Assembly (NCBI RefSeq): GCF_000146505.1
Contig: NC_017448.1
Location: forward strand, 420,001 to 452,000
Length of the DNA: 32,000 nucleotides
DNA from: Fibrobacter succinogenes subsp. succinogenes S85
Lineage (GTDB): Bacteria; Fibrobacterota; Fibrobacteria; Fibrobacterales; Fibrobacteraceae
Reading direction: 5' to 3'
A program made the translations under genes and the position numbers. The notes below the pieces were generated by a model. It saw only the letters and a program-made list of their open reading frames with translations. It had not been told where the DNA came from and made no database searches. Positions 1-30,159 of this stretch are shown here, in pieces. Numbering within the stretch: position 1 is the stretch's first letter; each line of letters begins with the position of its first letter.

Positions 1-54
1 ATCACTACAGCCATTGTAAGCCTCCATTGTAAATAAATGTAACAAAATAATTCA

Positions 55-100
55 AGACGAAAGAACGCTTGCAAAGCAAGCTACAGACGAGAGACGAAAG
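55..100 (+). repeat. Heptad/hairpin element copy 1 (AGACGAAAGAACG - CTTGCAAAGCAAG - CTACAGACGAGAGACGAAAG)
   Basis: Read directly from the sequence. It is homologous to 2497..2534 and, in inverted orientation, to 131..174. Confidence 0.85.
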
Positions 101-130
101 TTATAGTTTGGCAGCGAAGCTGCGATTTTT

Positions 131-174
131 TCTACTCTCGTCACTCGTCTACCAGCGAAGCGGTCTCTCGTCTA
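131..174 (-). repeat. Heptad/hairpin element copy 2 (inverted)
   Basis: The reverse complement reads TAGACGAGAGACCGCTTCGCTGGTAGACGAGTGACGAGAGTAGA. It is complementary to copy 1, so the two can form a long imperfect hairpin. Confidence 0.85.
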
Positions 175-275
175 ATTAATTATCAAAATATTACGGTTTT
201 TATCGCAATTATTCGCATAACATTCCCATTTTATGTTATTTTTCTTTGCGTTAAAAACATTAAGTGAGAAAATCT

Positions 276-2492
276 ATGGAATGGAACGATTTCACGAGCC
301 TGACCGCAGAAAACATGCAGGCAATTTGGGACTTCAAGACTAAAGACCCGTTTTCAATTTTAGGTATCCACCCGCTCGAAACCGATCGCGGGATCAAGAC
401 CGTCATCCGCACCTACCAGCCGCAGGCCAGCTTTGTCCGCGGTGAATCGTGCGACGGCACTGAAGAATTTGATTTTGTGAAGCTTGGCGACACAGGATTT
501 TTCGAAGCCATCCTCGACTTGGAATACAAGCCGTTCTTTTACAAGCTCATCATCAAGCAGGGCGACGGCATCGAATACACGCTCGTCGATCCGTATGCAT
601 TCTTGCCGGTCCTCAGCGACTTTGACCGCCACCTGATTGCAACAGGCACGCACTACGAACTTTACCGCAAGCTCGGCGCCAACATCATCGAACACCAGGG
701 ATTCAAGGGCGTTCACTTCGCCGTCTGGGCTCCGAACGCTCGTGCCGTTTCTGTGGTCGGCAACTTCAACAGCTGGGACGGCCGCCGTCACCAGATGCGC
801 ATGCTCGGTGCCTCGGGCATTTGGGAAATCTTCATTCCGAATCTTGGTGAAAACGAACTCTACCGCTTTGAAATTCACGGCGCCGACGGGAACCTCCATG
901 TGAAGGTGGACCCGCTTGCAAAGCTCGCCGAAGTCCGCCCGGCAACAGCCTCCATCACAACACACCTCGACGGTTACGAATGGGGCGATGATCTTTACAT
1001 GAAGACGCACTGGGCCACAAAGGTCTTTGGCGCTCCGATGAACATTTACGAAGTCCACGCCGGTTCCTGGCGTCGCGACCCGGCTAATCCGGACCGTTTC
1101 CTCAACTGGGACGAGCTCTCCGAACGCCTCATCCCGTACCTCAAGGAAATGGGATACACGCACGTGGAATTCTTGCCGCTCGCCGAACACCCGCTCGACG
1201 AATCTTGGGGCTACCAGGTTACCGGTTACTACTCCCCCACGAGCCGCTACGGCACACCGGACCAATTCCGCCACTTTGTGGACCTTTGCCACCAGAACGA
1301 AATCGGCGTGATTTTGGACTGGGTTCCGGCCCACTTCCCGAAGGATGCACACGCTCTCGGACGTTTCGACGGCACTGCCTGCTACGAGCATGCCGACCCG
1401 CGTCAGGGCGAACACCCGCACTGGGGCACATACATCTTTAACCTCGGCCGTAACGAAGTCAAGAACTTCCTCATTGCAAACGCGATGTACTGGCTCAAGG
1501 AATTCCACTGCGACGGTCTCCGCGTCGATGCTGTAGCCTCCATGCTTTACCTCGACTACGGTAAGGGTCCGGGCGAATGGGTGCCAAACAAGGACGGCGG
1601 CAACATCAACTACGATACGCTCGAATTCCTGAAGCACTTGAACAGCATCATGGGTCGCCTGACCCCGCATGCCATCCTCATCGCCGAAGAATCAACAAGC
1701 TTCCCGAGCATCACTCGCCCGCCAGAGCAGGGCGGTCTCGGCTTCCACTACAAGTGGAACATGGGCTGGATGAACGACTTCTTGAGCTACATCCAGCACG
1801 AACCGATCCACCGCAAGTACCACCATAACCAGCTTACGTTCAGCATGGTCTACGCTTATTCTGAAAACTTCATACAAGTTTTCAGCCATGACGAAGTGGT
1901 ACACGGCAAGGGTTCCATGCTCGGCAAGATGCCTGGCGACAACTGGCAGAAGTTTGCAAACCTCCGCCTCACCTACGCTTTCCAGTACGCACACCCGGGC
2001 AAGAAGCTCAACTTCATGGGCAACGAATTCGGTCAGTTCCGCGAATGGAACGAAAAGCGCTCGCTTGACTGGCACTTGGTCAGCTGGGATAGCCACGGCA
2101 AGCTCCTTGAAATGATGAAGGTTCTGAACCACATCTACAAGGAAAATGCTCCGCTATGGGAAATTGACCATTACTACACCGGCTTTGAATGGATCTGGTG
2201 CGACGACGCCGACAATTCCATCGTAAGCTTCGTCCGCAAGGATGACCATGGCAACATGATTCTCTGCGTGTTCAACTTCACGCCGGTTGTCCGTAACGAT
2301 TACCGTCTGGGCGCTCCTGCTCGCGGTGCTTGGAAAGAAATTTTCAACACCGATGCAGCCATGTTCGGCGGCTCCAACGTCGGCAATCTCGGTGAAGTCT
2401 GGACGCAAGATGTTCCATGGCAGAATCGTGAATGGAGCTTGAACATCAAGCTTCCGCCTCTCGCGGCAGTTTACTTCAAACTCGAGAGATAG
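276..2492 (+). CDS. glgB: 1,4-alpha-glucan branching enzyme (GH13)
   Basis: Track ORF 264..2492 (742 aa). It is a full-length GlgB-like protein with a CBM48-type block GVHFAVWAPNARAVSVVGNFNSWDGRRHQM and GH13 blocks DGLRVDAVASMLY, ILIAEEST and FSHDEVVHGK. The GTG at 264 has no obvious SD, so the first ATG at 276 is preferred as the start. Confidence 0.93.
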   Translation: MEWNDFTSLTAENMQAIWDFKTKDPFSILGIHPLETDRGIKTVIRTYQPQASFVRGESCDGTEEFDFVKLGDTGFFEAILDLEYKPFFYKLIIKQGDGIEYTLVDPYAFLPVLSDFDRHLIATGTHYELYRKLGANIIEHQGFKGVHFAVWAPNARAVSVVGNFNSWDGRRHQMRMLGASGIWEIFIPNLGENELYRFEIHGADGNLHVKVDPLAKLAEVRPATASITTHLDGYEWGDDLYMKTHWATKVFGAPMNIYEVHAGSWRRDPANPDRFLNWDELSERLIPYLKEMGYTHVEFLPLAEHPLDESWGYQVTGYYSPTSRYGTPDQFRHFVDLCHQNEIGVILDWVPAHFPKDAHALGRFDGTACYEHADPRQGEHPHWGTYIFNLGRNEVKNFLIANAMYWLKEFHCDGLRVDAVASMLYLDYGKGPGEWVPNKDGGNINYDTLEFLKHLNSIMGRLTPHAILIAEESTSFPSITRPPEQGGLGFHYKWNMGWMNDFLSYIQHEPIHRKYHHNQLTFSMVYAYSENFIQVFSHDEVVHGKGSMLGKMPGDNWQKFANLRLTYAFQYAHPGKKLNFMGNEFGQFREWNEKRSLDWHLVSWDSHGKLLEMMKVLNHIYKENAPLWEIDHYYTGFEWIWCDDADNSIVSFVRKDDHGNMILCVFNFTPVVRNDYRLGAPARGAWKEIFNTDAAMFGGSNVGNLGEVWTQDVPWQNREWSLNIKLPPLAAVYFKLER

Positions 2493-2496
2493 AAAA

Positions 2497-2534
2497 AGAC
2501 GAAAGAACGCTTCGCTACAGACTAAAGACGAAAG
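2497..2534 (+). repeat. Heptad/hairpin element copy 3 (AGACGAAAGAACGCTTCGCTACAGACTAAAGACGAAAG)
   Basis: It starts 5 nt after the glgB stop, in the same orientation and with nearly the same sequence as copy 1, but without the CTTGCAAAGCAAG hairpin. Confidence 0.85.
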
Positions 2535-2572
2535 ATGTTTTAGTAATTCTGAGCGAAGTCGTAAGATTTAAG

Positions 2573-2600
2573 ATCGGTAGCGCTATGCTGCCGATTTTTT
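2573..2600 (+). terminator. Rho-independent terminator for glgB (shared convergent site with the OMP gene)
   Basis: ATCGGTAGC-gctat-GCTGCCGAT (9-bp stem with one G-U) followed by TTTTTT. The T run overlaps the stop codon of the minus-strand OMP gene. Confidence 0.7.
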
Positions 2601-3216
2601 AATTCAATGCCACCGAGAACAAAAGCATCATGGAAGACGAGCGAAATACGCCATCGTCATCGGACCAGTATTCACCCGAATTATAGGCTAGCGACACCCC
2701 AATAGCGGTATGTTCACCAACCCACCAGTCCTTGCCCACTTCAATATCAAAGCTAAGCGCACTGAGCCCCGTATTCCCAGAATATTTATGGCAATTCAGG
2801 TTATAACCCGTCAAGCCCAGTGACCCGCTAATAAACACATTGTTCCACCCGGGTACATAATACGTTGCGCCAACGCCTAAATAAACGGAACTCAGCACGT
2901 AAAAATCGTGATCCATATAAGTCGCAAGCCCATAGCGCGCCTCTTGGAAATTAGAATACATCACGTACCCCAAATTCGCATGCAACGCCAAATCCGGCAC
3001 GACATAAAAACCGAGTTTTCCATGCACCCTTGCACCAAAACCATTGGCAGTCAAGGATTCCTCGCCATCGGCGTTTTCAAAAGACGCATACCCCATTCCC
3101 ATTGACGCATTTGCAAACAGCCCGTCGTGCGTAAACGGAGCAGAAAGCGGTCCGGCCCAAGTTGCCGAAACAGCCACTGACAATGCAAGCAATAATATAG
3201 CGAGAAGACGATCCAT
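2599..3216 (-). CDS. Small outer-membrane beta-barrel protein (hypothetical, OMP_b-brl-like)
   Basis: 205-aa ORF with an N-terminal signal peptide (MDRLLAILLLALSVAVSATWA). The rest is Gly/aromatic-rich with alternating hydrophobic strands (GFYVVPDLALHANLGYVMY, VYLGVGATYYV, AIGVSLAYN). The start lies 2 nt after the stop of the upstream B1 gene (TGA-TT-ATG). Confidence 0.7.
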   Translation of the reverse strand: MDRLLAILLLALSVAVSATWAGPLSAPFTHDGLFANASMGMGYASFENADGEESLTANGFGARVHGKLGFYVVPDLALHANLGYVMYSNFQEARYGLATYMDHDFYVLSSVYLGVGATYYVPGWNNVFISGSLGLTGYNLNCHKYSGNTGLSALSFDIEVGKDWWVGEHTAIGVSLAYNSGEYWSDDDGVFRSSSMMLLFSVALN

Positions 3217-3218
3217 AA

Positions 3219-4802
3219 TCAGTTTTGATACTCTAATTTAGCAAAATCAGAGACTTTCCAAAGCTTGACAACATCACCACGCAACCTAAACCCAAGCGAT
3301 ATATACGGCGAAATTCCTTTGGAATGACCATATTTCGAAGCTTTCATATTATGAAATCCGGCCTTCAAACGAATTGCAATTCGCCCCGTTATTGGATCGC
3401 CCTCAGGCATGGTCTTGCCTTCAAGACTCGGGAAAAGATAATCCACATACGCCCCAAAGCCGTAACGGAAATAACGTTCTTGCCTGTTTTCGCGTTTTTC
3501 TTCACCATCTCTGCGAACCACATAGAAAGCGGTACCCAAATTTGCAAATGCGGCCCCTTCAAAATATTTTGTCCTAAGCACTCTATAACCTAGCAAAGAA
3601 TGTATTCCATAATCAAAAAAGCCGCAGGAATCGCACTTTTCATCCAAGGATCGTGTATTGAATTCAAAAGAGAACAAAACATTATAAATCCTAAAATCTA
3701 AAGCGACATTAAAGAAGAAATATGGTTTGTAATCCGGGAAATCCCCAGCCAAAAACGGAATACCAAAATCGCTACCCAAGCCAAAACTGAAAGAGGACTC
3801 CCCTTCAATCAGGGATTTTAACATTTTTCCTAAAGCAATTGATTTCATCACAGGGCATGCCAAATCTTTATTGACTTCGGGCTTATCTTGCAAATCTTCA
3901 CATTTAAAATTTTCATGATAATCACGTTCTGCAACACGATTCAAAAGCAAATCAAGACCATCTTCGTATCGATACGTACTTTGCCTTACCAAATAATTTG
4001 ATGAAGAATCTTTATTTAAAATAAATTCATAATCACGATTCAAGTATTTCAAAAGAGCTTTTGATCGTGGCGACAAGTCCGCAGAATCCACAAGCTGAAC
4101 AGCAGTTGCATAATCACCATCGTAGACAAGAGATTCTATGCGTTTACGTACTTCAATCGCCGAGTTAGGTTCCACGCCATAATTCAAACGGTATGGGAAA
4201 AATTGTACATTTTCCAAGCTTTGAACATCCAAAAAAGCAACTGATTCAGATACACCTTCCAAAAAGAAAATTCTCTTATTCGGAATTTCTGAATCAAATT
4301 TGGGTACAGCAATCACGCGCAGGATCAATTTAAACGAAGAAGAATCCTTTAAAATATCAGGACCCATGTATGCAAATTGAGTGAAGACCTTTTTTGTTTT
4401 TTCGACAGGCGGATCCACCCAAGTTTTAGTTTCTTTGTCATAAATTTTGTCTACATGAATAATGTTATGGATTAAATAAAAACCATTTGTTTCTTTTTGC
4501 GAGCGCAGTTCAAATGTTTTGCGGACAATCTCGGGCGCTTCGGCCAAATCACGTTGCATTCGGGCCGTTTTCAGTTCAGACCATTCCATAAAAGATTTAT
4601 AGACATCCGGATATTCCTTATCAAAATTGACCCAGGGCAACCTATCCTCGCTGTACACATTACCCGTGATGAGCGAGCCATAATAAGCTACAGGCGCGGT
4701 TTCTAGCTTTTTCGCCACTGTTACCGAATTCACCAACATATCGTCATATGCAAAGCTATAAGACAGCAGCGTCAATACAATTGCAAAAATGTACTTAACC
4801 AT
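3219..4802 (-). CDS. Hypothetical secreted/outer-membrane protein, cassette gene B (copy 1)
   Basis: Track ORF 3219..4838, with the likely start at ATG 4802 (MVKYIFAIVLTLLSYSFA signal peptide). It is a clear paralog of 9786..11390: VAKKLETAPVAYYGSLI/VAQKLQTAPIAYYGSLI, SADLSPRSKALLKYLNRDYEFILNKDSS/SADLSPRSKILMKILNKEYDFIVNEDST, PFLAGDFPDYKP/PFLAGDFPDFDP, RSLDEKCDSCG/RSLDAKCDSCG, ERYFRYGFGAYV/ERYFRYGFGIYV. The C-terminal ~190 aa look like a beta-barrel. Confidence 0.75.
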   Translation of the reverse strand: MVKYIFAIVLTLLSYSFAYDDMLVNSVTVAKKLETAPVAYYGSLITGNVYSEDRLPWVNFDKEYPDVYKSFMEWSELKTARMQRDLAEAPEIVRKTFELRSQKETNGFYLIHNIIHVDKIYDKETKTWVDPPVEKTKKVFTQFAYMGPDILKDSSSFKLILRVIAVPKFDSEIPNKRIFFLEGVSESVAFLDVQSLENVQFFPYRLNYGVEPNSAIEVRKRIESLVYDGDYATAVQLVDSADLSPRSKALLKYLNRDYEFILNKDSSSNYLVRQSTYRYEDGLDLLLNRVAERDYHENFKCEDLQDKPEVNKDLACPVMKSIALGKMLKSLIEGESSFSFGLGSDFGIPFLAGDFPDYKPYFFFNVALDFRIYNVLFSFEFNTRSLDEKCDSCGFFDYGIHSLLGYRVLRTKYFEGAAFANLGTAFYVVRRDGEEKRENRQERYFRYGFGAYVDYLFPSLEGKTMPEGDPITGRIAIRLKAGFHNMKASKYGHSKGISPYISLGFRLRGDVVKLWKVSDFAKLEYQN

Positions 4803-4803
4803 A

Positions 4804-6000
4804 TTAGCGTTCCATGGTATCAGGATAAACAAATTCAACCGGTTTCATAGTCAACACAGGAATAGAAAACTCAATTGACATATAAAACCTAAATCCAGAA
4901 GCATTTACAGTATGATCCCCCCAAATATTTTTTATACCCGATCTGAAACGAAGATAAAACATATCGTACAGGATTCCAGCACCATACACCGGATAAACCT
5001 GATACGAATCCATGCTTGATCTATTTTTATCATCGTTACTTTTATTTTCACCGTAGAAATCGGCTTCAACACCAGTCGTTAAATAACACAACAACGAAAT
5101 ATCCCTAAAGTAATAGCCAACATTTAAGTTCCAGCCCAAATTGGAAAAATGAAGAGTATCACTGGATCGGACATCATTGAAATGCGCGTTGATTTGGCCT
5201 TCAAAACTTACATTGTTCCAATACCAGTTTGTCCCCCCATAAAAACCAAAACCATTCTTAACCTTATCCGAAATATCTCCTAAAAAGGCGACATAGGAAC
5301 CACCTAAGAAAAACGTATATGACTTGAGCGGGTCAACTTCCTTTTTATCCCAATAAGCATCAACTAGATATTCTAACTGTTCTCGTTTTTTCAATTGGAG
5401 TTTGTGTTCTTCAATCAATGATGGAACATCATATTTGTATTTAAAGAAACCCTTTAATACAATACAAATAAAAATCCTGTCACTCTCGTTTTCAACACTT
5501 TTGAGTTTTTCATCAAGTATTCCAGATTCAATTTCTGCTTTCAATTTTTCCTTAAAGGTTTTATGGAACGTATCGTAAACATAATCCGGCCTTGCATTAT
5601 AACGCGATACAAATTGAACATCACTAAGCGATTCAAAATCGCCTAAAAAGTATTTCAAGAGAAGTTTTTCGCTATCATGAATTATAAAATAAGTAGACGT
5701 CTTTTCATACGACTCAGCAACATCAACCAGTTTCTTTAAACGTACAAGGTTATCATCTTGCAAAGCTTTTCTCATCGCATTGCGAAGATACTTGACCTGG
5801 TCAAACTCTTGCCGAAGCATTTCTGATTCGCTGAATTTTTCAACGAGGCTCAACGAATCTATAGATTTAGTCTCTTCATAATCATGAACAAACAAGTTCA
5901 TCACAGAATCGCGCGAAGTCGATGCCTCGGCAAATGCATTACATACAAAAAACAGCGACAAAGCACTCAAAAAAGCAAAACATTTTACACAAACTCGCAT
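4804..6000 (-). CDS. Hypothetical secreted/outer-membrane protein, cassette gene A (copy 1)
   Basis: Track ORF 4804..6195 overlaps the xerD 3' end. The realistic start is ATG 6000 (MRVCVKCFAFLSALSLFFVCNAFA signal peptide), 34 nt after the xerD stop. It is a paralog of 11387..12646: DSVMNLFVHD/DSVMYLFVQN, LLLKYFLGDFESLSDV/LVIKYFLKDFEFLSQV, ESDRIFICIVLKGFFKYKYDVPSLIEEHKLQL/ESDRAFIYIVLNSMFRYKEDVSSMIENYKYQL. The stop TAA is 1 nt from the B1 ATG. Confidence 0.75.
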   Translation of the reverse strand: MRVCVKCFAFLSALSLFFVCNAFAEASTSRDSVMNLFVHDYEETKSIDSLSLVEKFSESEMLRQEFDQVKYLRNAMRKALQDDNLVRLKKLVDVAESYEKTSTYFIIHDSEKLLLKYFLGDFESLSDVQFVSRYNARPDYVYDTFHKTFKEKLKAEIESGILDEKLKSVENESDRIFICIVLKGFFKYKYDVPSLIEEHKLQLKKREQLEYLVDAYWDKKEVDPLKSYTFFLGGSYVAFLGDISDKVKNGFGFYGGTNWYWNNVSFEGQINAHFNDVRSSDTLHFSNLGWNLNVGYYFRDISLLCYLTTGVEADFYGENKSNDDKNRSSMDSYQVYPVYGAGILYDMFYLRFRSGIKNIWGDHTVNASGFRFYMSIEFSIPVLTMKPVEFVYPDTMER

Positions 6001-6034
6001 ACGATAAATATACAAAGTTTTAGTAAAAAGTAGC

Positions 6035-6928
6035 CTACTTCCCGCCCATCTCCCTCGGATGGAAACTGCGATGTTCTTGCTTGATAAAGTCTTTATCGAC
6101 GTGCGTGTAAATTTGCGTAGTGCTGATATCCGCATGGCCGAGCAGCTCTTGCAATACACGCAAGTCCATACCCGCCTCCAGGCAGTGCGTAGCAAAGCTA
6201 TGGCGGAACGTATGCGGCGAAACCTGTTTGCTCAAGTGCATCGTATGCAGTTGCACAATTTTCCAGGCGCCCATACGGCTCATCGGCTTACCATGCGCAT
6301 TCAGGATGATATTGTCCGTTGTCGGATGCGTTAAAGGGCGCCCTTCTTCAATCCAGGCGCGGAGATTTTCCTTTGCCTTGCTCCCAAGCGGTACAAGACG
6401 CTGCTTATTGCCCTTGCCAATCGGCATGAGCCATTCATTTTCAAGGTCAATTTGCGAAAGCTTGATGCCAAGCGCTTCCGAAATACGAAGCCCGCCACTG
6501 TACATGAGCTCAATCAAAGCCGTATCACGGAGCGGATTCTTACCGTTCGCTGCACTCTCAAAAACGCTGTCGATTTCTTCACGGGTCAGGTACTGCGGCA
6601 GGTAATGGCCAAGCTTTGGCGTTGCAAGCATCGATTCCGTGCTGTAATCGTACTCGCCCTGGATCTGCATGTACTTGAGGAACCCGCGCAAGCTCGAAAA
6701 ATGCCTCGCAACCGATGTCGGGGAATACTCTTCTTGCCCCGCCGTAAGCGTCAAGAATTCGTCCAGCTTTTCGGGCTGCAAGTCCTTAAGATCAATACCG
6801 TTCTCGTCAAGCCAGGCGATAAAATGCCTCAAATCCTCCTGATAGCTTTGAATCGTCACCGGGGATAGATTCCGTTCTACCCCGAGGTGCGAAAGAAAAG
6901 CGTCCAGACGGTTGGAGTTGAGGCTCAT
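6035..6928 (-). CDS. xerD: Tyrosine site-specific recombinase XerD
   Basis: 297 aa. It has an SAM-like N-terminal domain (LDAFLSHLGVERNLSPVTIQSYQEDLRHF) and catalytic blocks LMYSGGLRISE, GKGNKQRLVPLG, HTFRHSFATH and LLGHADISTTQIYTHV. GKGNK is typical of XerD rather than XerC. Confidence 0.9.
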   Translation of the reverse strand: MSLNSNRLDAFLSHLGVERNLSPVTIQSYQEDLRHFIAWLDENGIDLKDLQPEKLDEFLTLTAGQEEYSPTSVARHFSSLRGFLKYMQIQGEYDYSTESMLATPKLGHYLPQYLTREEIDSVFESAANGKNPLRDTALIELMYSGGLRISEALGIKLSQIDLENEWLMPIGKGNKQRLVPLGSKAKENLRAWIEEGRPLTHPTTDNIILNAHGKPMSRMGAWKIVQLHTMHLSKQVSPHTFRHSFATHCLEAGMDLRVLQELLGHADISTTQIYTHVDKDFIKQEHRSFHPREMGGK

Positions 6929-6947: not shown

Positions 6948-8942
6948 TTAATCTTCTTCGTCTTTTTTTGAGGGCTTAGCGCAGCGGTCTGTAGCCCAGT
7001 TGGTCGACTTGAAGCAGGCACTTCTGGTGTAGCAACATCCGTATGCATTTTTATTGCCAAGATCTTCGCAATGGCAAGCAATTCCGTCACCTTCCTTCTC
7101 TTCGTCAACAAGTTCTCCGTTAGCGCAGACCACCATGTATCCGCCAGTGTGATAACTTGTGTTGATGCAGGTTTGGAGAGAATTGTGGCAAACTCCGAAG
7201 TAGGTACCCTGGATATTGCATGTTACGTGTCTCGTCTCGTTTGTAAGGTCGAATTCGAAATCTTCCACGCGTTCATCAGGAGAGGAGACTGGTTTGTGAT
7301 TATTCCAGTTGTACCCGTGAACGGTTTTTGCGGCCATCTTTTTACTAGGAATCAGTTCCTTCCATTTCTGTTTCGTCTCGAAACTTCTGAACGGCGGGTA
7401 GTCGGGGTCTTCGTCCTTGAGAATTTGCTTGCAACGTTCTTCGTTGTAGCAGGGATTGAAATCGTCCCATCCACTTTCGGAACGTCCCCAGCAAGGATCG
7501 CAATCAGAACATTGATCCGTGTTGCATTGGTCTATCATCTTATCTATAGGGTAGCCTTCTCTACAAGCGACGGGGCACTTGTAATACTCCTTGTCAAGCG
7601 GGTCGAACTTGTTATGGAGCCTTTCCCATTGCCCGTCGACGCACCTGTACATGATGGCGTTGTTATTGATGTCGTTGTCGCACCTCAGTTCGCCGTTAAG
7701 ACATTCGCCGCAGATGGCCTTGTCGGTACGGCACGACTTGTTGCCGCATATGGAAACGGCTTTCTTAGCTTCGCCGGCGACGCACTCGTAGACGGTTCCC
7801 TTTCCTTCGTCATCGTTGGTACAGGTGTGTTCGTAGTTCGTGCACTCGCCGCAACCGTTGTCGCGCGGGTCGCAGGATTTCCCGTTACAGCTCTCGGTCA
7901 CCTTCTCGCCCTTTTCGCAGCGGGTGACTGTCGCCTTGAAGTTTTTGTCTTCGGTGCAGGTCTGCACGTTGTCGAGGCATTCGCCGCAATCCGTGCCCTT
8001 TTCGTTACAGGAGACCAAGCCACACGAGCGGTTCACAATAACTCCTTTTACACATTCCTTTACGATACCGATATTTGCAGGGCTGTTAGAGCAGGAGTTC
8101 GTGTAGCTGTCGCCGCATTCCTTTTCAAGGACGTCCTTGTTAGCGCATTCCTTGCTCTTGGTATTGCAAAGAACACCCTCGTCACAAGCAGTTTCCTTGC
8201 AGACGCAAGCACCGTCTTTCGCGGTACCACCAGAAGCCTTGCACAAGTCATCGAAGGTCGGAGCGGATGCCGAGGAAGAGCTTGACTTGGATTCAGAAGA
8301 GGCGGCAACAGAGGATGAGCTGAGCTTGACCTGGTTTCCGCAAGCACCCGTGACAGTGTTGCAAACGGCACCTTCGTCACAGACCTCGCCTTTACAGACG
8401 CAGGCGCCATCTTTCATGGAGCCACCGGATGCCTTACACAAGTCGTTGAAGGTTGGAGCCGCGGAAGAGGAACTTTTTTTGGAGTCCGAAGATATATCGG
8501 AAGGTTTGCTTTGGTTTCCGCAAACACCAGTAATGGTGTTGCAAACGGCACCAACGTCGCAAAGTTCGTTTTTACAGACGCAAGCACCGTCTTTTGCGGT
8601 ACCACCGGACGCCTTACAAAGATCCGTGAAGGACTTCAGATCGTCCTTGACTTTGGACGAGGAACTGGCCTTGCTACTAGATGATTTTGCAGAACTTAAA
8701 GAATCTTTCTTGGAAACAGGAATCCAGTTTTCGCTGTGGCAATAGTAATCAGCATCTTCTTTTTTGGCGTAAACAGTATCGCCTTCATTTTCATCGCCAC
8801 ATATTCCAAGTTCGTAAATCGAGTTGACCTCCGTAATGATTTCTCTTGGGAGAGTTTCATCGCTAGATTCATCACTACAGGCGACAAGAATTGTCACGAC
8901 CATCATAGTCGCAAACAAAACGTCTAAAATTGTTTTTTTCAT
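6948..8942 (-). CDS. Ser/Cys-rich repeat lipoprotein (hypothetical)
   Basis: Track ORF 6948..8966. The start at ATG 8942 gives MKKTILDVLFATMMVVTILVAC with a lipobox (LVAC). It carries three ~60-aa repeats (F[TND]DLCKASGG..KDGACVCK..CD.G..CNT) separated by poly-Ser linkers. These are followed by four ~45-aa six-Cys modules (C-x2-C-x6-C-x12-C-x9-11-C-x4-C) and a further Cys-rich C-terminal region. Confidence 0.8.
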   Translation of the reverse strand: MKKTILDVLFATMMVVTILVACSDESSDETLPREIITEVNSIYELGICGDENEGDTVYAKKEDADYYCHSENWIPVSKKDSLSSAKSSSSKASSSSKVKDDLKSFTDLCKASGGTAKDGACVCKNELCDVGAVCNTITGVCGNQSKPSDISSDSKKSSSSAAPTFNDLCKASGGSMKDGACVCKGEVCDEGAVCNTVTGACGNQVKLSSSSVAASSESKSSSSSASAPTFDDLCKASGGTAKDGACVCKETACDEGVLCNTKSKECANKDVLEKECGDSYTNSCSNSPANIGIVKECVKGVIVNRSCGLVSCNEKGTDCGECLDNVQTCTEDKNFKATVTRCEKGEKVTESCNGKSCDPRDNGCGECTNYEHTCTNDDEGKGTVYECVAGEAKKAVSICGNKSCRTDKAICGECLNGELRCDNDINNNAIMYRCVDGQWERLHNKFDPLDKEYYKCPVACREGYPIDKMIDQCNTDQCSDCDPCWGRSESGWDDFNPCYNEERCKQILKDEDPDYPPFRSFETKQKWKELIPSKKMAAKTVHGYNWNNHKPVSSPDERVEDFEFDLTNETRHVTCNIQGTYFGVCHNSLQTCINTSYHTGGYMVVCANGELVDEEKEGDGIACHCEDLGNKNAYGCCYTRSACFKSTNWATDRCAKPSKKDEED
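8145..8630 (-). repeat. Three tandem ~180-195-bp coding repeats inside the lipoprotein gene
   Basis: Repeated DNA blocks on the + strand, e.g. gcagacgcaagcaccgtctttcgcggtaccacc (8200s), acagacgcaggcgccatctttcatggagccacc (8390s) and acagacgcaagcaccgtcttttgcggtaccacc (8570s). They correspond to protein repeats at residues ~105-144, 165-204 and 230-266. Confidence 0.85.
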
Positions 8943-8986
8943 GATTTTCCTCGATAACCAGGGCAAAGAAATAAAATTTTACGTAA

Positions 8987-9015: not shown

Positions 9016-9147
9016 CGCGCTTGTGCGTTACAAGTTCAATGAAACCAATTCCATTGTTGTCTGGCCATGCGACGTAATCCAGCAAATTTCAACGAGCGGA
9101 TTCTTTTCATAATTCCACATTTTTTTTCTTTTTTCTTTAAAATCCCC

Positions 9148-9176
9148 TTGCCAATGCGTTTTTTCTTTTCTATAAT
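9148..9176 (+). promoter_or_regulatory. Candidate sigma70-type promoter of the tRNA-Lys array
   Basis: TTGCCA (9148..9153), a 17-nt spacer, then TATAAT (9171..9176). It is preceded by a T-rich UP-like tract, and the first tRNA starts 23 nt downstream of the -10 element. Confidence 0.55.
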
Positions 9177-9198
9177 TGTGCGCGTCCTAAGCGACTAT

Positions 9199-9271
<73 letters not shown>

Positions 9272-9401
9272 CTAAGCACTAAACCGCAAGGCTAGGTGCT
9301 GCAAATACAAAAGCGTCAGACAAAGCTAAGCGTCTAACGAACTTTGAAACTGCGGCTTTTGATTTTTGCAAAAAGACATTGCTGAAAGGCGACCAAATCA
9401 T

Positions 9402-9474
<73 letters not shown>

Positions 9475-9625
9475 CTAAATACCAAACCGAAAGGCAAGGT
9501 ATTGCAAATACAAAAGCGTCAGACAAAGCTAAGCGTTTTTGAAAGCGAAAGTGGAATCTAACGAACTTTGAAACTGCGACTTTTGATTTTTGCAAAAAGA
9601 CATAGCCAAAAGGCGACCAAATCAT

Positions 9626-9698
<73 letters not shown>

Positions 9699-9702
9699 CT
9701 AA

Positions 9703-9734
9703 ACACCATCTCATTGAGGTGGTGTTCTTTTTTA
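9703..9734 (+). terminator. Rho-independent terminator of the tRNA array
   Basis: Stem ACACCATCTC / GAGGTGGTGT (one G-U pair), a short loop, then TCTTTTTTAT. Confidence 0.75.
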
Positions 9735-17020: not shown

Positions 17021-17095
17021 GTGTTTAAAGGTTGCTGGATTTATAAGCAACAATAAACAAAAGCTATGATCAAAAAACAAAAGGCGAAAGCCCAA

Positions 17096-17128
17096 CCTAT
17101 TCCTACTGTCTACCGCCTACTTCCTACT
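17096..17128 (-). repeat. Heptad array AGTAGGA-AGTAGGC-GGTAGAC-AGTAGGA-ATAGG (right arm, inverted)
   Basis: Reverse complement of cctattcctactgtctaccgcctacttcctact. It lies 19 nt upstream of the metXW ATG 17147. Confidence 0.8.
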
Positions 17129-17146
17129 AAAACTTTACTATCTTTT

Positions 17147-18979
17147 ATGCATATGAGTGAATATTTGCATAAATCGTTTGGTCCCGTAATCCCCAAGGAT
17201 TTCAACAAGGATTATGGTGAACAGGGCTTTTTGCTGGAAAGCGGCAAGACGCTCCCGGCCCTGACCATCCGTTACGAAACGTACGGCACATTGAACGCCG
17301 CCGGCGATAACGCCGTGTGGGTTTGTTCGCCGTTGACCGCCGATGCGCACGCCGCCGGCTGGTACACCGAAAATGACAAGAAGCCCGGCTGGTGGGACGA
17401 ACTCATCGGACCTGGCAAGGCTATCGATACAGACCGATTCTTTGTAGTTTGCAGCAACATCCTTGGCGGATGCAAGGGCTCGACCGGCCCGGCAACAATC
17501 AACCCGCGCACGGGCAAGCCCTACGGCAGCACCTTCCCTACCATTACGATAGGCGACATGGTACACGCCCAGAAAGAACTTGCAGACGGTCTTGGCATCA
17601 AGGAATTCTACAGCGTCATCGGCGGATCCATGGGTGGATTCCAGGCGATGAAATGGGCAATTTACTACCCGGAACAGGTGAAGCGCATCATCGTGATTGC
17701 AAGCTCTCCGCGCTTTTCTAGCCAGGCGCTCGGCTTTGAAGTTGTAGCCCGCGATGTCATCACGCAGGACCCGAACTTCCACGGTGGCGACTATTACGAT
17801 GAAGGTAAAACAAGACCGGACATCGGCCTTGCGAACGCCCGCAAGCTCGCGCACATCACGTACCTCTCTGCCGTTGGCATGGAGAAAAAGTTCAAGCGCG
17901 CCCAGGACCAGGAGAACAGAAGCCACGCCGTCACTTACTCGACGCCGTACGACTTGAACCTCCCGATTGAAAGCTACTTACGTTATCAGGGAACGAAGTT
18001 CGTCGACCGTTTTGATGCGAACAGCTACTTGCACATCGCACATGCGACCGACGCATTCGACCTTGAAACCGAATACGGCAGCATAGAAAACGCCTTCAAG
18101 GGCATCAAGGCTGAAGTCCTGAACGTGAACCTTTCAACCGACTGGCTTTTCCCGCCGCACGAGAGCCGCCGCATTACAAGCGCACTCCTCAATACCGGCA
18201 AGACCGTGACGAGCCTCGAACTTGACACGCAATTTGGTCATGACGGATTCTTGATTGAAGTGGGCGAACTCGGCAAGGCTGTAGGCCGCTTCCTCGATTC
18301 AAAGATTATCCCGCAGAACGGAACGCAGGCAGTACCTGTATTCCACGACCAGAACGACTTCCAGCGCATCAGCAAGCTCGTGAAGGAAGGTAGCCATGTA
18401 CTCGACCTCGGTTGCGGCAGTGGCGACTTGCTAGATTACCTTATCCGCAAGAAAAACGTCACGGGCTTTGGCATCGAAAAGAACATCAAGGGAATTCTCG
18501 ACTGCCTCGAAAAAGACGTACAAGTTATCCAGCGCGACTTGGATGAAAGTGGTCTCACGGACATCAAGGATGGCAGTTTCGACTATGCGATTATCAACCG
18601 CACGATTCAGGAAATCCGCGACCCGGTCGCCCTTTTGAACGAGCTTTTGCGCGTCGCAAAGCAGGTCATCGTGACGTTCCCGAATTTCGGCCACTGGTCT
18701 GCCCGCGGAAGCCTGATGCTCCACGGCCGTATGCCGATTTCGAAGGAACTCCCCTACGAATGGTACGACACGCCGAACATCCGCGTGCTTACGCTCAAGG
18801 ACTTCTATACCTTGTGCAACAAGGAAGGTTTCAAGATTGAAAACTTGCACTTCCAGAATGAACACAAGATAAGCAAGTTCCTGACCGCCATAGGCCTGCC
18901 GAACTTTGGCGCCGAACATGTGATCGCGACTATTAGTAAATTAGACGAAAGACGAGAGACGAGAGACGAAAGAGGATAA
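17147..18979 (+). CDS. metX: Homoserine O-acetyltransferase MetX fused to a MetW domain
   Basis: Track ORF 17066..18979. The first 27 codons are encoded by the heptad repeat element, so ATG 17147 is preferred. The MetX part has LTIRYETYGTLN and a GGSMGG nucleophile elbow. The MetW part from about residue 400 has the VLDLGCGSGDLLDYL methyltransferase-like motif. The last ~11 codons (DERRETRDERG) come from an (AGACGAR)n element. Confidence 0.9.
   Translation: MHMSEYLHKSFGPVIPKDFNKDYGEQGFLLESGKTLPALTIRYETYGTLNAAGDNAVWVCSPLTADAHAAGWYTENDKKPGWWDELIGPGKAIDTDRFFVVCSNILGGCKGSTGPATINPRTGKPYGSTFPTITIGDMVHAQKELADGLGIKEFYSVIGGSMGGFQAMKWAIYYPEQVKRIIVIASSPRFSSQALGFEVVARDVITQDPNFHGGDYYDEGKTRPDIGLANARKLAHITYLSAVGMEKKFKRAQDQENRSHAVTYSTPYDLNLPIESYLRYQGTKFVDRFDANSYLHIAHATDAFDLETEYGSIENAFKGIKAEVLNVNLSTDWLFPPHESRRITSALLNTGKTVTSLELDTQFGHDGFLIEVGELGKAVGRFLDSKIIPQNGTQAVPVFHDQNDFQRISKLVKEGSHVLDLGCGSGDLLDYLIRKKNVTGFGIEKNIKGILDCLEKDVQVIQRDLDESGLTDIKDGSFDYAIINRTIQEIRDPVALLNELLRVAKQVIVTFPNFGHWSARGSLMLHGRMPISKELPYEWYDTPNIRVLTLKDFYTLCNKEGFKIENLHFQNEHKISKFLTAIGLPNFGAEHVIATISKLDERRETRDERG
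18941..18973 (+). repeat. Heptad array AGACGAA-AGACGAG-AGACGAG-AGACGAA-AGAGGA
   Basis: Read directly from the sequence. It overlaps the metXW 3' end and supplies AGAGGA 6-7 nt upstream of the yicC ATG 18981. Confidence 0.85.
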
Positions 18980-18980
18980 A

Positions 18981-19862
18981 ATGTCTATTATCTCCATGAC
19001 CGGGTTCGGTAAGAGCGAATCCACATTGCAAGGAATCACGTGCGTTATCGAAGTGCGCAGCGTGAACAGCCGTTTCCTCGAAATTTCGAGCAAGATTCCA
19101 AAGAACTTCGCCTACCTCGAAAACGATTTCAAGGCACAAATCAAGGACAAGCTCGTTCGCGGTTCCGTGAACTTTTCGATTACGCTTGGCGCAGGCAACG
19201 CCGGGAACATTCCCGTTTGCTACAACGAAGCCGCCGTGGCAAAGTTCGTGGAAATAACGAAAGCGATGCAGAAGAAGTACGGCATTGCAGGCGACATCAA
19301 GCTTGAACATGTGCTTGCCATCCCTGAGGTTTTGCAGTTCACGGACGGCAATGGCGACAACGAAGTCTGGGAAAAACACCTGAAGGCAGAACTCGACAAG
19401 GCTTTGGACGGCGTCATCGCCATGCGCGAAAAAGAAGGCGCAAACCTCGCCGTGGACCTCACCCGTCGCGTAATCCACCTGAACGAAGTCATCGATAAAG
19501 TCGAAGTTCTCGATCCGCAACGCATTGAAACGTGGAAGGTCAAGTTCCGCGAACGCATCAATACGCTCATGAAGGATTCCGAAATCGACGAAGTCCGCCT
19601 CTTGCAAGAAGCCTGCATCATGGCCGACAAGCTCGACATCCACGAAGAAATCACGAGATTCAGAAGCCACAACAAGCTGTTCCTCGACGCACTCGCCAAG
19701 GGCGGCGCCCAGGGCAAGAACCTCGGGTTTATCCTCCAGGAAATGGGTCGTGAAGCGAATACGCTTGGCACCAAGTGCCAAAATGCCGAAATCGCAGCAC
19801 TTGCCATCGAACTCAAGAACGAGATTGAGTGCATTAGGGAACAATCAATGAACGTGGCATAA
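18981..19862 (+). CDS. yicC: YicC-family protein (stress-induced endoribonuclease family)
   Basis: 293 aa with the typical N-terminus MSIISMTGFGKSE and a C-terminal DUF1732-like block NLGFILQEMGREANTLGTK. Confidence 0.9.
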   Translation: MSIISMTGFGKSESTLQGITCVIEVRSVNSRFLEISSKIPKNFAYLENDFKAQIKDKLVRGSVNFSITLGAGNAGNIPVCYNEAAVAKFVEITKAMQKKYGIAGDIKLEHVLAIPEVLQFTDGNGDNEVWEKHLKAELDKALDGVIAMREKEGANLAVDLTRRVIHLNEVIDKVEVLDPQRIETWKVKFRERINTLMKDSEIDEVRLLQEACIMADKLDIHEEITRFRSHNKLFLDALAKGGAQGKNLGFILQEMGREANTLGTKCQNAEIAALAIELKNEIECIREQSMNVA

Positions 19863-28127: not shown

Positions 28128-29111
28128 CTACAAGCAGTGAGCGCGGAGGTCTTCGTCGCTAAGCGTGCTGAGGTATGCAGGCGGAACGTCGAGAACAGTC
28201 TTGCAACCAGTCTGGCCGTTAGCCTTCATGCGGAGAGCAGCGCGAGCGTAAGCCACGAGAACGCTCGTCGTGAATTCCGGGTTGGAATCAAGCTTGAGGC
28301 TGTATTCGATCACGTGCGTGTGTTCCTTGTTCATGCCGGTCTTGCCAGTACGGATCACGAAACCACCGTGAGCGAGGCCGCTGTGGTTCTTGTTGAATTC
28401 TTCTTCGCTGATGAAGTTGACGGTAGTGTCGTATTCATCGAAGTAGTTCGGCATCGTCTTGATGGCGTTTTCGATGTATGCCTTGTCAGCACCTTCTTCA
28501 GCAACCACGTAAACGAGACGAGTGTGCTTCTGGCGAGTGGTGAGTTCCGGCATGGAACCGCTACGCACGGCTTCGAGAGCAGATTCCACCGGGCAGGTGT
28601 ACTGTTTGGCGTTCTTCACACCCTTGATGCGGCGGACTGCGTCGCTGTGGCCCTGAGAAACACCCTTGCCCCAGAACGTGTAGTCCTTGCCTTCCGGAAG
28701 GATGGACTGAGCATACACGCGGTTCAAGCTGAACATACCCGGGTCCCAACCGACAGAGATCATAGCAATCTTGTTTGCGCCCTTGGCAGCAGCGTCAACA
28801 GCAGCGAAGTGCTGCGGGATCTTGGCGTGCGTGTCGAAGGAGTCGATTACGTTGAACATAGAAGCATACTTCGGGGTGAGCACCGGCAGGTCCGTAGCAG
28901 AGCCACCGCAAATGATGAGCACGTCCACCTTGTCCTTCCATGCTTCCATTTCAGAAACGTTCAACACCGGAACGCCAGCCGTCTGGATCTTCACCGTCAG
29001 CGGATCGCGACGAGTGAAAACAGCGACGAGTTCCATATCCGGAGCCTGCTTCACAGCGCATTCCACACCGCGACCGAGGTTACCGTAACCGAGAATAGCA
29101 ATCTTTGCCAT
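28128..29111 (-). CDS. ddh: meso-diaminopimelate D-dehydrogenase
   Basis: The track ORF 28128..29234 N-terminus runs through a heptad repeat. ATG 29111 gives a 327-aa protein starting MAKIAILGYGNLGRGVECAVKQAPDMELVAVFTRRDP, the typical Ddh N-terminal Rossmann motif and length. Confidence 0.9.
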   Translation of the reverse strand: MAKIAILGYGNLGRGVECAVKQAPDMELVAVFTRRDPLTVKIQTAGVPVLNVSEMEAWKDKVDVLIICGGSATDLPVLTPKYASMFNVIDSFDTHAKIPQHFAAVDAAAKGANKIAMISVGWDPGMFSLNRVYAQSILPEGKDYTFWGKGVSQGHSDAVRRIKGVKNAKQYTCPVESALEAVRSGSMPELTTRQKHTRLVYVVAEEGADKAYIENAIKTMPNYFDEYDTTVNFISEEEFNKNHSGLAHGGFVIRTGKTGMNKEHTHVIEYSLKLDSNPEFTTSVLVAYARAALRMKANGQTGCKTVLDVPPAYLSTLSDEDLRAHCL

Positions 29112-29156
29112 AAGATAATCCTTGTTAAAAATTTTTGCGTGGAAAATATAGGAATT

Positions 29157-29187
29157 AGACGAAAGACGAGAGACGAAAGACGAGAGA
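29157..29187 (+). repeat. Heptad array AGACGAA-AGACGAG-AGACGAA-AGACGAG-AGA
   Basis: Read directly from the sequence. It lies in the ddh/LolA-like divergent intergenic region, 46-76 nt upstream of the ddh start, where it reads pyrimidine-rich in the ddh sense. Confidence 0.85.
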
Positions 29188-29370
29188 ATTTCATGTAAAA
29201 TTAGTAGGTATGAAAAACGTGCTCTAGAACACACAAAACACCCCTATAATACAATTCGGACTATAATTTTACAGAAATTGTTACTAGAACGAGCAAAATG
29301 ATATATTTTTCTTACAAAGAGTCAAGGCGATTTTCATAAACCGCCTTTAAATTTTTTGAAGGAGAAAAAT

Positions 29371-30159
29371 ATGAAAAATCATTTCTTGAGCGCTCTTAGC
29401 GCAGGTTTTCTGCTTTTCACAACTTGTTTCGCGCAGTCCGCGAATGAAATCGCCAAAAAAGTCCACGACTTACCTTCCGGGAAAACATCTTCCGGACTTG
29501 TTTCTGTAACTTTGATTGATAAAAACGGCAAGACCCGCAACCGCGAATTAGTCTCTTACACCATGAAAGACGGCTCAACCGACAAGACTGTTCTCATGTT
29601 CAAAACTCCGCGTGATGTAGCAGGCATCAGCTACCTCACCTACGACTATCCCGACAAAGCCGACGGTTCCACAGTCGATAGCGACAGCTGGATTTATATC
29701 CCAGCCATGAAAAAGGTACGCCGCGTTTCTGGCTCCAACAAGGACGACGATTTCCAGGGAACCGACTTCACTTACGACGATCTCGGCACCCGCAGCCTCT
29801 CCAAGGACAACTTTGCCCTCCTTGGCGAAGAAAAAGTGAACGGCATCGACTGCTGGATTTTGGAAGCCAAGGCCAAAGACCCGAAGGCTAAAGTCAGCCG
29901 CCGAGTCACATGGGTGAACAAGAAGACCTTCGTCGTCCAGAAAGGCGAATACTACGACAAGCAGAACCGCCTGCAAAAAACGCTTACCGCAGACGATATC
30001 AAACAGGTGAACGGCTACTGGACCACGCTCAAGCAGACAATGACTAACGTCCAGACAAACCACAAGACCATCTACGAAGTCAAGAACCTCAAATACGATG
30101 AAAAGGTCAACGAGAGCTACTTCACTGTAAGCGCTCTTGAACGTGAACAGATTAAGTAG
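29371..30159 (+). CDS. LolA-like outer-membrane lipoprotein-sorting family protein
   Basis: The track ORF starts at TTG 29356. ATG 29371 has AAGGAG 7 nt upstream. It has a signal peptide MKNHFLSALSAGFLLFTTCFA and the family-typical block WIYIPAMKKVRRVSGSNKDDDFQGTDFTYDDL. Confidence 0.75.
   Translation: MKNHFLSALSAGFLLFTTCFAQSANEIAKKVHDLPSGKTSSGLVSVTLIDKNGKTRNRELVSYTMKDGSTDKTVLMFKTPRDVAGISYLTYDYPDKADGSTVDSDSWIYIPAMKKVRRVSGSNKDDDFQGTDFTYDDLGTRSLSKDNFALLGEEKVNGIDCWILEAKAKDPKAKVSRRVTWVNKKTFVVQKGEYYDKQNRLQKTLTADDIKQVNGYWTTLKQTMTNVQTNHKTIYEVKNLKYDEKVNESYFTVSALEREQIK

Follow-up and report, generated by a model that had tools for sequence, protein, structure and literature searches.

A strain-variable inverted doublet of AGACGAR heptad modules between a thioesterase gene and glgB of Fibrobacter succinogenes S85, and the intergenic repeat family to which it belongs

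The 32,000-nt stretch of Fibrobacter succinogenes S85 analyzed here (NC_017448.1, 420,001–452,000; hereafter the window, whose numbering is used throughout) carries at 55–174, between an acyl-ACP thioesterase gene and glgB, two inverted modules with the periodic heptad AGACGAR. On reading of the sequence, they flank a small hairpin followed by a T-run. Comparison with related strains showed that this composite is a strain-specific insertion or replacement between divergent promoters, and not a conserved regulator or terminator of the thioesterase gene or glgB. Its best explanation is a doublet resembling the REPINs (doublets of repetitive extragenic palindromes [REPs]), in which a module designated H and its variant H′ are inverted around a short spacer whose small hairpin and T-run are incidental. 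We favor, with moderate confidence, the view that these modules belong to a modular interspersed intergenic repeat family that acts at the DNA level, resembling REPINs, bacterial interspersed mosaic elements (BIMEs), and the STRRs (short tandemly repeated repetitive elements) of cyanobacteria, and is not a regulator of glgB. The family is apparently undescribed. Rfam gave no family for the window or for 1–300, only tRNAs reaching the threshold in the window and the best match on 1–300 being a plant miRNA family with E = 6.2, and no paper on AGACGAGAGACGAG or on intergenic repeats of Fibrobacter was found in the literature. In the rumen, Fibrobacter ranks among the principal degraders of cellulose; its promoters and non-coding DNA have hardly been characterized.

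Structure and setting of the composite

The left arm (55–100) reads AGACGAA-AGAACG-[CTTGC-AAA-GCAAG]-CTAC-AGACGAG-AGACGAA-AG, exactly as described in a first-pass annotation of this DNA, and is an H module with its purine strand on the plus strand. A covariance model trained on seven H modules from other genomes matched it at 49–101 on the plus strand with 45.4 bits. Its inserted hairpin, GCTTGC-AAA-GCAAGC, occupies 67–81. The center was also as first described, with GCAGC-GAA-GCTGC at 111–123 followed by GATTTTTT; this spacer hairpin and T-run (111–131) were terminator-like in a pattern scan on the plus strand only. The right arm (131–174), which had been taken for an imperfect reverse complement of the left one, is indeed such and has a small insert of its own. 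It is an H′ module with its purine strand on the minus strand, reading TAGACGAG AGACCG-CTTCGC-TGGT AGACGAG TGACGAG AG, and was matched by the same model at 134–179 on the minus strand with 28.8 bits. This copy is a variant with a ACCAGCGnAGCGG mini-hairpin, and the same variant is present at three other loci (L026, L079, and L228). A/T-rich flanks border the composite on both sides. The left flank (44–54), seen when the filled site of the window is set against the empty site of L201, prolongs the inverted repeat by ATAATT. The right flank (AATTAATTAT, 175–184) mirrors it, and the sequence past 184 is colinear with the empty site.

The potential of the inverted pair to form a long hairpin or cruciform was borne out by folding of 50–180, which was better than that of any shuffled sequence in each of three forms: −46.5 kcal/mol as plus-strand RNA (z −4.8), −54.5 kcal/mol as minus-strand RNA (z −6.5), and −26.5 kcal/mol as DNA (z −4.1), with no shuffle as good. 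The inverted pair, with its potential to pair, is therefore no chance feature, but the arms are more than a stem: each is a separate module copy, H or H′, of a kind that is found alone elsewhere and carries a covarying hairpin insert of its own. The spacers of other composites are unrelated in sequence to that at 111–131. The heptamer GCGAAGC, which had been assigned to two loops, lies at 155–161 in the right arm as reported, but the other copy is at 114–120, one base from the assigned position (113–119). It was not enriched across the window (7 found against 7.6 expected), and three of the seven copies are inside modules. A reading of these as the d(GCGAAGC) mini-hairpin is plausible in that GNA loops predominate on the pyrimidine strand of the family, but the main hairpin of the H module in the composite has the loop AAA/TTT, and a single-stranded DNA state would here be hypothetical.

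The composite is intergenic: glgB begins at 276 (276–2492), and the gene to the left begins at 14 on the minus strand. Thus, the heptads are non-coding, as had been proposed, and a location inside a conserved coding region, which would have spoken against the element, was not found. The glgB product is 97% identical to GlgB of Fibrobacter sp. UWB12 and 92–99% identical to many Fibrobacter metagenome proteins. The left neighbor is a divergent acyl-ACP thioesterase gene (minus strand; ATG at 14–12, with GGAGG eight bases upstream), and in UWB12 and further relatives, glgB likewise has on its left a gene for a 143-residue acyl-ACP thioesterase on the opposite strand. This setting contradicts the earlier description of a terminator upstream of glgB, because no co-directional gene ends before the tip at 111–131. 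Since the left gene is divergent, the central hairpin terminates no obvious transcript. As an intrinsic terminator of an upstream gene, the tip was rejected: it has a hairpin and a T-run, but the neighbor is divergent and two promoters flank the element. Terminator-like sites in 1–3000 of the window were no commoner than in shuffled sequences in the pattern scan. Placed between divergent promoters, the composite should not be transcribed from either of the flanking genes. A conserved glgB leader was also rejected, since relatives show empty or alternative sites and the conserved block corresponds to ca. 185–275 of the window, outside the element. A metagenome scan with GlgB yielded one relevant relative (76% identity), whose locus is non-syntenic and lacks the element.

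The heptad is not confined to this site. The window has 25 copies of AGACGAR, compared with 9.1 ± 2.9 in shuffled sequences, and none of 100 shuffles reached 25. The covariance model, built from members in other genomes, recovered exactly five modules in the window: 49–101 (plus), 134–179 (minus), 2491–2535 (plus), 18937–18973 (plus), and 29151–29187 (plus), the next match having E > 1. The first-pass annotation had counted at least five loci; there are five modules, but they lie at four loci. Nor is the family unique to the window, as it is repeated there and has many copies in other Fibrobacter genomes. The module at 2497–2537 (plus strand; 48.6 bits) is a solo H whose hairpin is minimal (GCGAAGC on the minus strand); the module begins 4 nt past the TAG stop codon of glgB (2490–2492) and precedes a terminator at ca. 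2574–2600. The other two are pure arrays, (AGACGAR)4AGA, hereafter R4, each scored as 4.4 units by Tandem Repeats Finder. One (18943–18973, plus strand) lies at the 3′ end of a MetX-MetW open reading frame (ORF), with 8 nt from the array end to the yicC ATG. The other (29157–29187, plus strand) is followed, when read on the minus strand, by aattc, CTATATTTT (29151–29143), and the ATG of a diaminopimelate dehydrogenase gene at 29111. The window thus holds five modules in 32 kb, and ca. six modules were found in 87 kb of other loci not selected for an array. By rough extrapolation, and not by count, a genome would carry on the order of 100 copies.

The MetX-MetW fusion ORF (17066–18979) reads through its R4 array, which encodes the last 12 codons and also provides GAGG about eight bases ahead of the yicC ATG at 18981. 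The arrays have no stop codon in any frame, and ORF callers extend genes through them, as in this case, which matters for annotation.

Modules, junctions, and turnover across genomes

One genome per species was scanned for three consecutive heptads, which gave at least 120 stretches; among those listed, 47 were from Fibrobacter or other Fibrobacteraceae and 14 from Alistipes or other Rikenellaceae. Module anatomy was worked out on the Fibrobacter loci together with the window (380 kb). Two module types were distinguished, R4 and H, the latter being AGACGAR-AGAACG-[hairpin]-CTAC-AGACGAR-AGACGAR-AGA. H corresponds to R4 with the second heptad exchanged for ACG-[variable GC hairpin]-CTAC, and the H′ variant has ACCG-CTnCGC-TGGT in place of the hairpin region. 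Because R4 arrays aligned to the H model with the hairpin alone deleted, the two types are homologous. Exactly four heptads were present in 45 of the 66 arrays, and the array flanks are conserved (TT before, AGA(AT) after). In 24–28 H modules, the flanks are constant and the hairpins variable. In ca. 20 of 24 H modules, the hairpin has GTAG ahead of it on the pyrimidine strand, with ATAG and ACCA as variants, and the loops on that strand are mostly GNA closed by C-G. One H subfamily reads GCGAGC-loop-GCGAGC and, on its base sequence, could pair through tandem G·A mismatches. The use of A or G at the seventh position differs modestly between H and R4 modules.

Covariation of the inserted hairpin, a check that had been proposed at the outset, was found over 23 H modules: 98.9% of cells were paired against 71% in shuffles and at most 64% in slid controls, and 22 cells were changed on both sides against 6.3 in shuffles. 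These values come from an alignment that had been fitted to the structure, and mechanical processes, too, can yield perfect palindromes.

Some modules stand alone, and others are combined with further repeat modules. Besides 55–174, inverted doublets are present in L002, L014, L057, L079, L083, L093, L095, L105, and L224, and these other composites consist of H and an inverted R4. Neither strand of the composites folds consistently better than the other. The loci from Bacteroidota have R4 arrays only, without H modules. The purine strand of R4 was on the C-rich strand, as judged from local GC skew, in 48 of 66 arrays; this follows from gene orientation, and the loci are not independent.

Spread of the family by phages was considered and rejected, because the nine matching viral contigs all represent one unrelated prophage locus with a simple repeat of variable copy number. 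In these contigs (L230–L238), (AGACGAG)n or (AGACGAA)n occurs with n = 5–12, the units being uniform within each array and the copy number differing among contigs; it looks like an ordinary simple repeat of another host. Loci from phyla outside the Fibrobacterota–Chlorobiota–Bacteroidota group (L007, L043, L046, L047, L058, and L104) have long (AGACGAR)n arrays followed by arrays of the complementary heptad. Heptad-built palindromes thus recur widely beyond that group.

The positions of the modules follow a common rule: the pyrimidine-strand end is followed by 3–5 A/T bases and then CTA. Among 66 arrays, 17 (1.4 expected) had CTA at an offset of 5–7 past the pyrimidine end; among 24 H modules, 7 (0.5 expected) had it at an offset of 4–6. 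At promoters, a CTATATTT box opens with this CTA; at gene ends, the same three bases are a TAG stop codon in reverse complement, and the bases after them are not box-like. At promoters, the pyrimidine strand accordingly reads array, 4–6 bases, CTATATTTn, and then 5–45 nt to an ATG in the same direction. TAnnTTT occurred at an offset of 6–8 in 12 of 64 arrays (0.66 expected), and the ATG of a long ORF lay within 60 nt in 23 of 66. The same geometry of array and box was seen at two Alistipes loci (L035 and L049), where the box is TAnnTTTG, the established −7 promoter element of Bacteroidota. On sequence reading, the TTTG at −33 of the Bacteroidetes type is not supplied by the array. At gene ends, the stop codon of a long ORF in the purine sense lay at most 12 nt, and usually 1–5 nt, upstream of 11 of 24 H modules, compared with 1 of 24 in the other sense. 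The stops beside H modules are mostly TAG, while genome-wide usage is 59% TAA, 29% TAG, and 12% TGA, and several H modules precede canonical terminators. The composite at 55–174 conforms to this rule. Past its pyrimidine end, the minus strand continues with tgaat-TATTTTGT, TACATTTA, GGAGG, and, 40 nt away, the thioesterase ATG at 14.

As the CTA junction is found both at promoters and at TAG stops, the feature they share is CTA and not a promoter. The junction rule would therefore reflect a target-site or junction preference rather than a promoter function. The products of the genes that follow an array and its box are citramalate synthase, glucose-6-phosphate isomerase, AlaRS, MiaB, ArgG, enolase, acetate kinase, DapA, a CorA-like protein, and diaminopimelate dehydrogenase. 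A specific regulon was rejected, since these ten annotated downstream genes are diverse and of a housekeeping nature. In this way, the family marks gene boundaries, pointing to the CTATATTT-type −7 box and to stop codons.

To follow the site of the composite between strains, the thioesterase–glgB spacers were compared between 'aaatgtaacaaaa' and 'caaaatattacRg'. Taking the window, with its 120-nt composite, as the GlgB reference, the site is empty in UWB12 (L201 and L202; GlgB 97% identical). The closest relative found (L213; 99%) has an unrelated 42-nt filler there. In L209 (95%), the site holds the H module of the window with an identical hairpin, followed by other repeats. The loci with the same GlgB protein as L209 (L203–L208 and L210) share the first heptad, after which comes another cassette, TCGTCATCCTGAGC...GAAGGATCCAGTG. 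The H module after glgB was present only in the window among the relatives compared, whose 3′ spacer and terminator differ. For the diaminopimelate dehydrogenase gene, whose products form one 97% protein cluster, the upstream array was present in the window (four copies) and L224 (three copies) and absent in L220–L223, which retain the CTATATTT box and everything downstream. The −7 box is therefore not part of a mobile unit, an idea we rejected because array-less orthologues retain it. These results show gain, loss, and exchange of modules between strains with 95–99% identity in the flanking proteins. The family is thus a source of strain-level variation and coincides with differences in intergenic DNA and gene neighborhood between near-identical strains. 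In L220–L229 compared with 28128–29400 of the window, the neighbors of the diaminopimelate dehydrogenase gene differ on both sides, with breakpoints at module-bearing spacers.

Orthologous arrays of different species were identical at 210 of 216 core positions, at 8 of 32 seventh positions, and at 52–69% of flanking positions. Of 45 arrays, 22 had one and the same seventh base throughout (GGGG or AAAA), where 7.4 were expected and none of 10,000 shuffles gave more than 18. The invariant core, the fixed copy number, and the uniform seventh base indicate concerted evolution with constraint on the AGACGA core and on length. This constraint could come from a protein that binds or processes the array, or from gene conversion together with selection. 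Concerted evolution under constraint is the main argument against regarding the arrays as junk only.

Weighing of the explanations

In the explanation we favor, an interspersed intergenic family active at the DNA level, a sequence-specific factor would read the AGACGA core in a 7-base register, on double- or single-stranded DNA. Such a factor would explain what is otherwise a puzzle, namely the combination of an invariant core, a set number of four copies, and a seventh base that switches in concert. The precise junctions would reflect the choice of target site, and the hairpin or cruciform potential of 55–174 would be a by-product of two modules placed head to head. Effects on neighboring genes would be secondary, the module replacing the region upstream of a promoter box.

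The family shares with the REP, BIME, and REPIN elements of Proteobacteria, which are mobilized by REP-associated tyrosine transposases (RAYTs), that it consists of short non-coding intergenic repeats in many copies whose presence differs between strains. Two further likenesses were found: a GC-rich palindrome with a GTAG-type foot on the pyrimidine strand of most H modules, and inverted doublets with a short spacer, the modules being single or in doublets and forming mosaics with other motifs. The host phylum differs, and the flanks here are tandem 7-nt repeats. STRRs of cyanobacteria are tandem 7-bp intergenic units, often hairpin-forming, with unknown function (PMC2670836). The present modules are likewise tandem, intergenic, and hairpin-capable heptanucleotides; they differ from STRRs in host (Fibrobacter), unit (AGACGAR), a copy number of essentially four, the hairpin-split variant, and the precise junctions. 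Known STRR units are CCCCAGT, TTGGTCA, and CAACAGT. One cyanobacterial match of our scan (L082, Microcoleus) has mixed heptamers and resembles a true STRR. BOX elements of Streptococcus pneumoniae consist of boxA-boxB-boxC modules of 45–59 nt and not of tandem heptads. They too are modular, built from a few short cassettes in variable combinations, intergenic, and foldable, and have no known sequence relation to the present family. An integron attC site was rejected: the composite ends in (G/T)TTAGAC...GTCTAA(T/C), in which the core order is reversed relative to RYYYAAC at the 5′ end and GTTRRRY at the 3′ end.

Several observations weigh against the favored explanation. No transposase, recombinase, or binding protein was identified for the module family, and no RAYT gene was seen in the annotation of the window, although no search aimed at RAYT was made. 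Unlike in REPs, the H palindrome differs between copies of a single genome (L105, L026, and the window), and it is the heptad flanks that are constant. Solo H modules sit between a stop codon and a terminator and are hence transcribed. A target-site duplication cannot be defined at 55–174, where the A/T-rich ends themselves belong to the inverted repeat, and several strain differences in intergenic DNA resemble wholesale replacement and not clean insertion. Some arrays persist with an invariant core at orthologous sites across species, which is no less compatible with a selected host function than with a selfish element. Finally, the position statistics are conditional on sampling, because the analyzed loci were mostly picked for carrying an array.

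Of the alternatives, a host cis-regulatory or boundary array is a serious rival, which we regard as possible but unlikely. Here (AGACGAR)4 would be a set of operator-like sites for a protein with a 7-bp register, such as omega repressor or MetJ; the arrays would cover −13 to −45 of promoters, have the opposite orientation at gene ends, and set promoter strength or insulate transcription units. At 55–174, the array would act on the thioesterase promoter, which on the minus strand lies 5–13 nt from the left end. In favor of this view, arrays keep a fixed spacing to the CTATATTT box, which recurs in the two Alistipes loci, the core is invariant with a copy number of four, arrays persist at orthologous promoters across species and precede genes for central metabolism and housekeeping, and the pyrimidine end of the composite faces the thioesterase start. 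The heptad operators of omega repressor (inc18 plasmids) and the AGACGTCT metboxes of MetJ are likewise contiguous repeats of 7 or 8 bp, degenerate at the last position, that overlie promoters or lie just upstream of them. AGACG is common to the metbox and the heptad, and about one-fifth of the arrays have four heptads that end 5 nt from a −7-like box. However, those operators serve known ribbon-helix-helix proteins with small regulons, whereas the Fibrobacter family has no known protein and many copies off promoters; the likeness is a mechanistic analogy only. A regulatory role is further opposed by close strains that retain box and gene without the array, by H modules that share the CTA junction at TAG stops with no box after it, by the lack of TTTG at −33 in the array as read from its sequence, and by the absence of a coherent regulon.

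A related proposal is that the arrays are recognition tracks of a factor common to Fibrobacterota and Rikenellaceae, which would read double- or single-stranded DNA in a strict 7-base register, install or maintain exactly four units, and so mark the boundaries of transcription units throughout the genome, just upstream of −7 boxes and just past TAG stops. We consider this doubtful. If true, the tracks would amount to a new promoter or insulator architecture, or to targeted insertion that builds uniform heptad arrays from a short template. The related 31-nt array in gut Rikenellaceae would point to an old shared factor or to exchange between co-resident phyla.

We consider it improbable that the modules act chiefly in RNA, with the purine strand in 3′ untranslated regions (UTRs) and the pyrimidine strand upstream of genes. 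The long hairpins of composites would then terminate transcripts or protect their 3′ ends, as proposed for REP/BIME and STRR, or the C/U-rich strand would be a Rho loading site. Both strands of 50–180 fold strongly, the inserted hairpin covaries, and H modules start 1–5 nt past stop codons in the mRNA sense and before canonical terminators (2497 of the window, L026, and L062). The pyrimidine strand of H is a GC hairpin followed by GUUCUUUCGUCU, flagged as terminator-like by the pattern scan, and STRRs possibly stabilize transcripts (PMC2670836). On the other hand, 55–174 lies upstream of both flanking promoters, and a plus-strand transcript would reach the central hairpin and T-run before the right arm is made; an RNA role of 55–174 is therefore unlikely. 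About one-fifth of the arrays lie directly upstream of a −7-like box and thus should not be transcribed from that promoter, composites show no consistently better-folding strand, Rfam has no match, and the covariation is subject to the fitted alignment and the possible mechanical origin of perfect palindromes noted above. Solo H modules in 3′ UTRs may nevertheless have a role at the RNA level.

That the element is an ordinary slippage microsatellite or a chance inverted repeat without family identity is very improbable. In its favor, units are homogeneous within arrays, copy number differs at one site between the window (four) and L224 (three), the prophage locus has the same unit in 5–12 copies, and long variable arrays occur in other phyla. 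Against it, most Fibrobacter and Rikenellaceae arrays have four copies, the flanks (TT before, AGA(AT) after) are conserved, the H variant has a defined structure, the junction rule holds, the heptad is strongly over-represented, and the fold z-scores are strongly negative.

Other repeats and features of the window

A second repeat family, GTCATYCTGAGC-[variable hairpin]-GAAGRATCCAGTG, often follows R4 directly and is present at ca. 2543–2569 of the window and in L032, L036, L041, L045, L080, L118, and L203 (3529–3565). Its outer stem covaries (ATCCT/AGGAT versus ATTGC/GCAAT), and it has no Rfam match; the neighboring GTCATCCTGAGC repeat in L203 also gave no Rfam family. Other short tandem repeats, mostly of 7 nt, lie in the same spacers: TTAGTGG/TTGGTGG, TAGTTAC, TAGGGGT, CTCAACT, and AATGCAG. 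They were seen in L203 (3570–3880), downstream of glgB in L213 and L214, in L100, L105, and L119, and in Alistipes loci L023, L040, L088, and L112. Heptad periodicity in these spacers is therefore not confined to AGACGAR. The conserved motif AGAGGATTGTTnnTTTCCAnTGT, which often comes after modules (L228 2239–2390, L018, and L024), may be another mosaic cassette.

The other genes of the window fit Fibrobacter, including one for a CBM30/CBM11 protein. At 2599–6928, three minus-strand ORFs without Pfam match adjoin a gene for a XerC/D-type integrase (6035–6928). This block and the genes downstream of glgB vary among strains whose GlgB proteins are 93–99% identical. UWB12 has a degenerate R4 array upstream of its own integrase gene (L201 16618–16654). 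Three direct repeats of 121 nt (67–78% identical; 8137–8632) lie in a 672-residue minus-strand ORF (6948–8966) without Pfam match and are presumably coding. At 9130–9708, there are three tandem tRNA-Lys(CTT) genes with repeat units of 203–224 nt, the last two of which are 97% identical.

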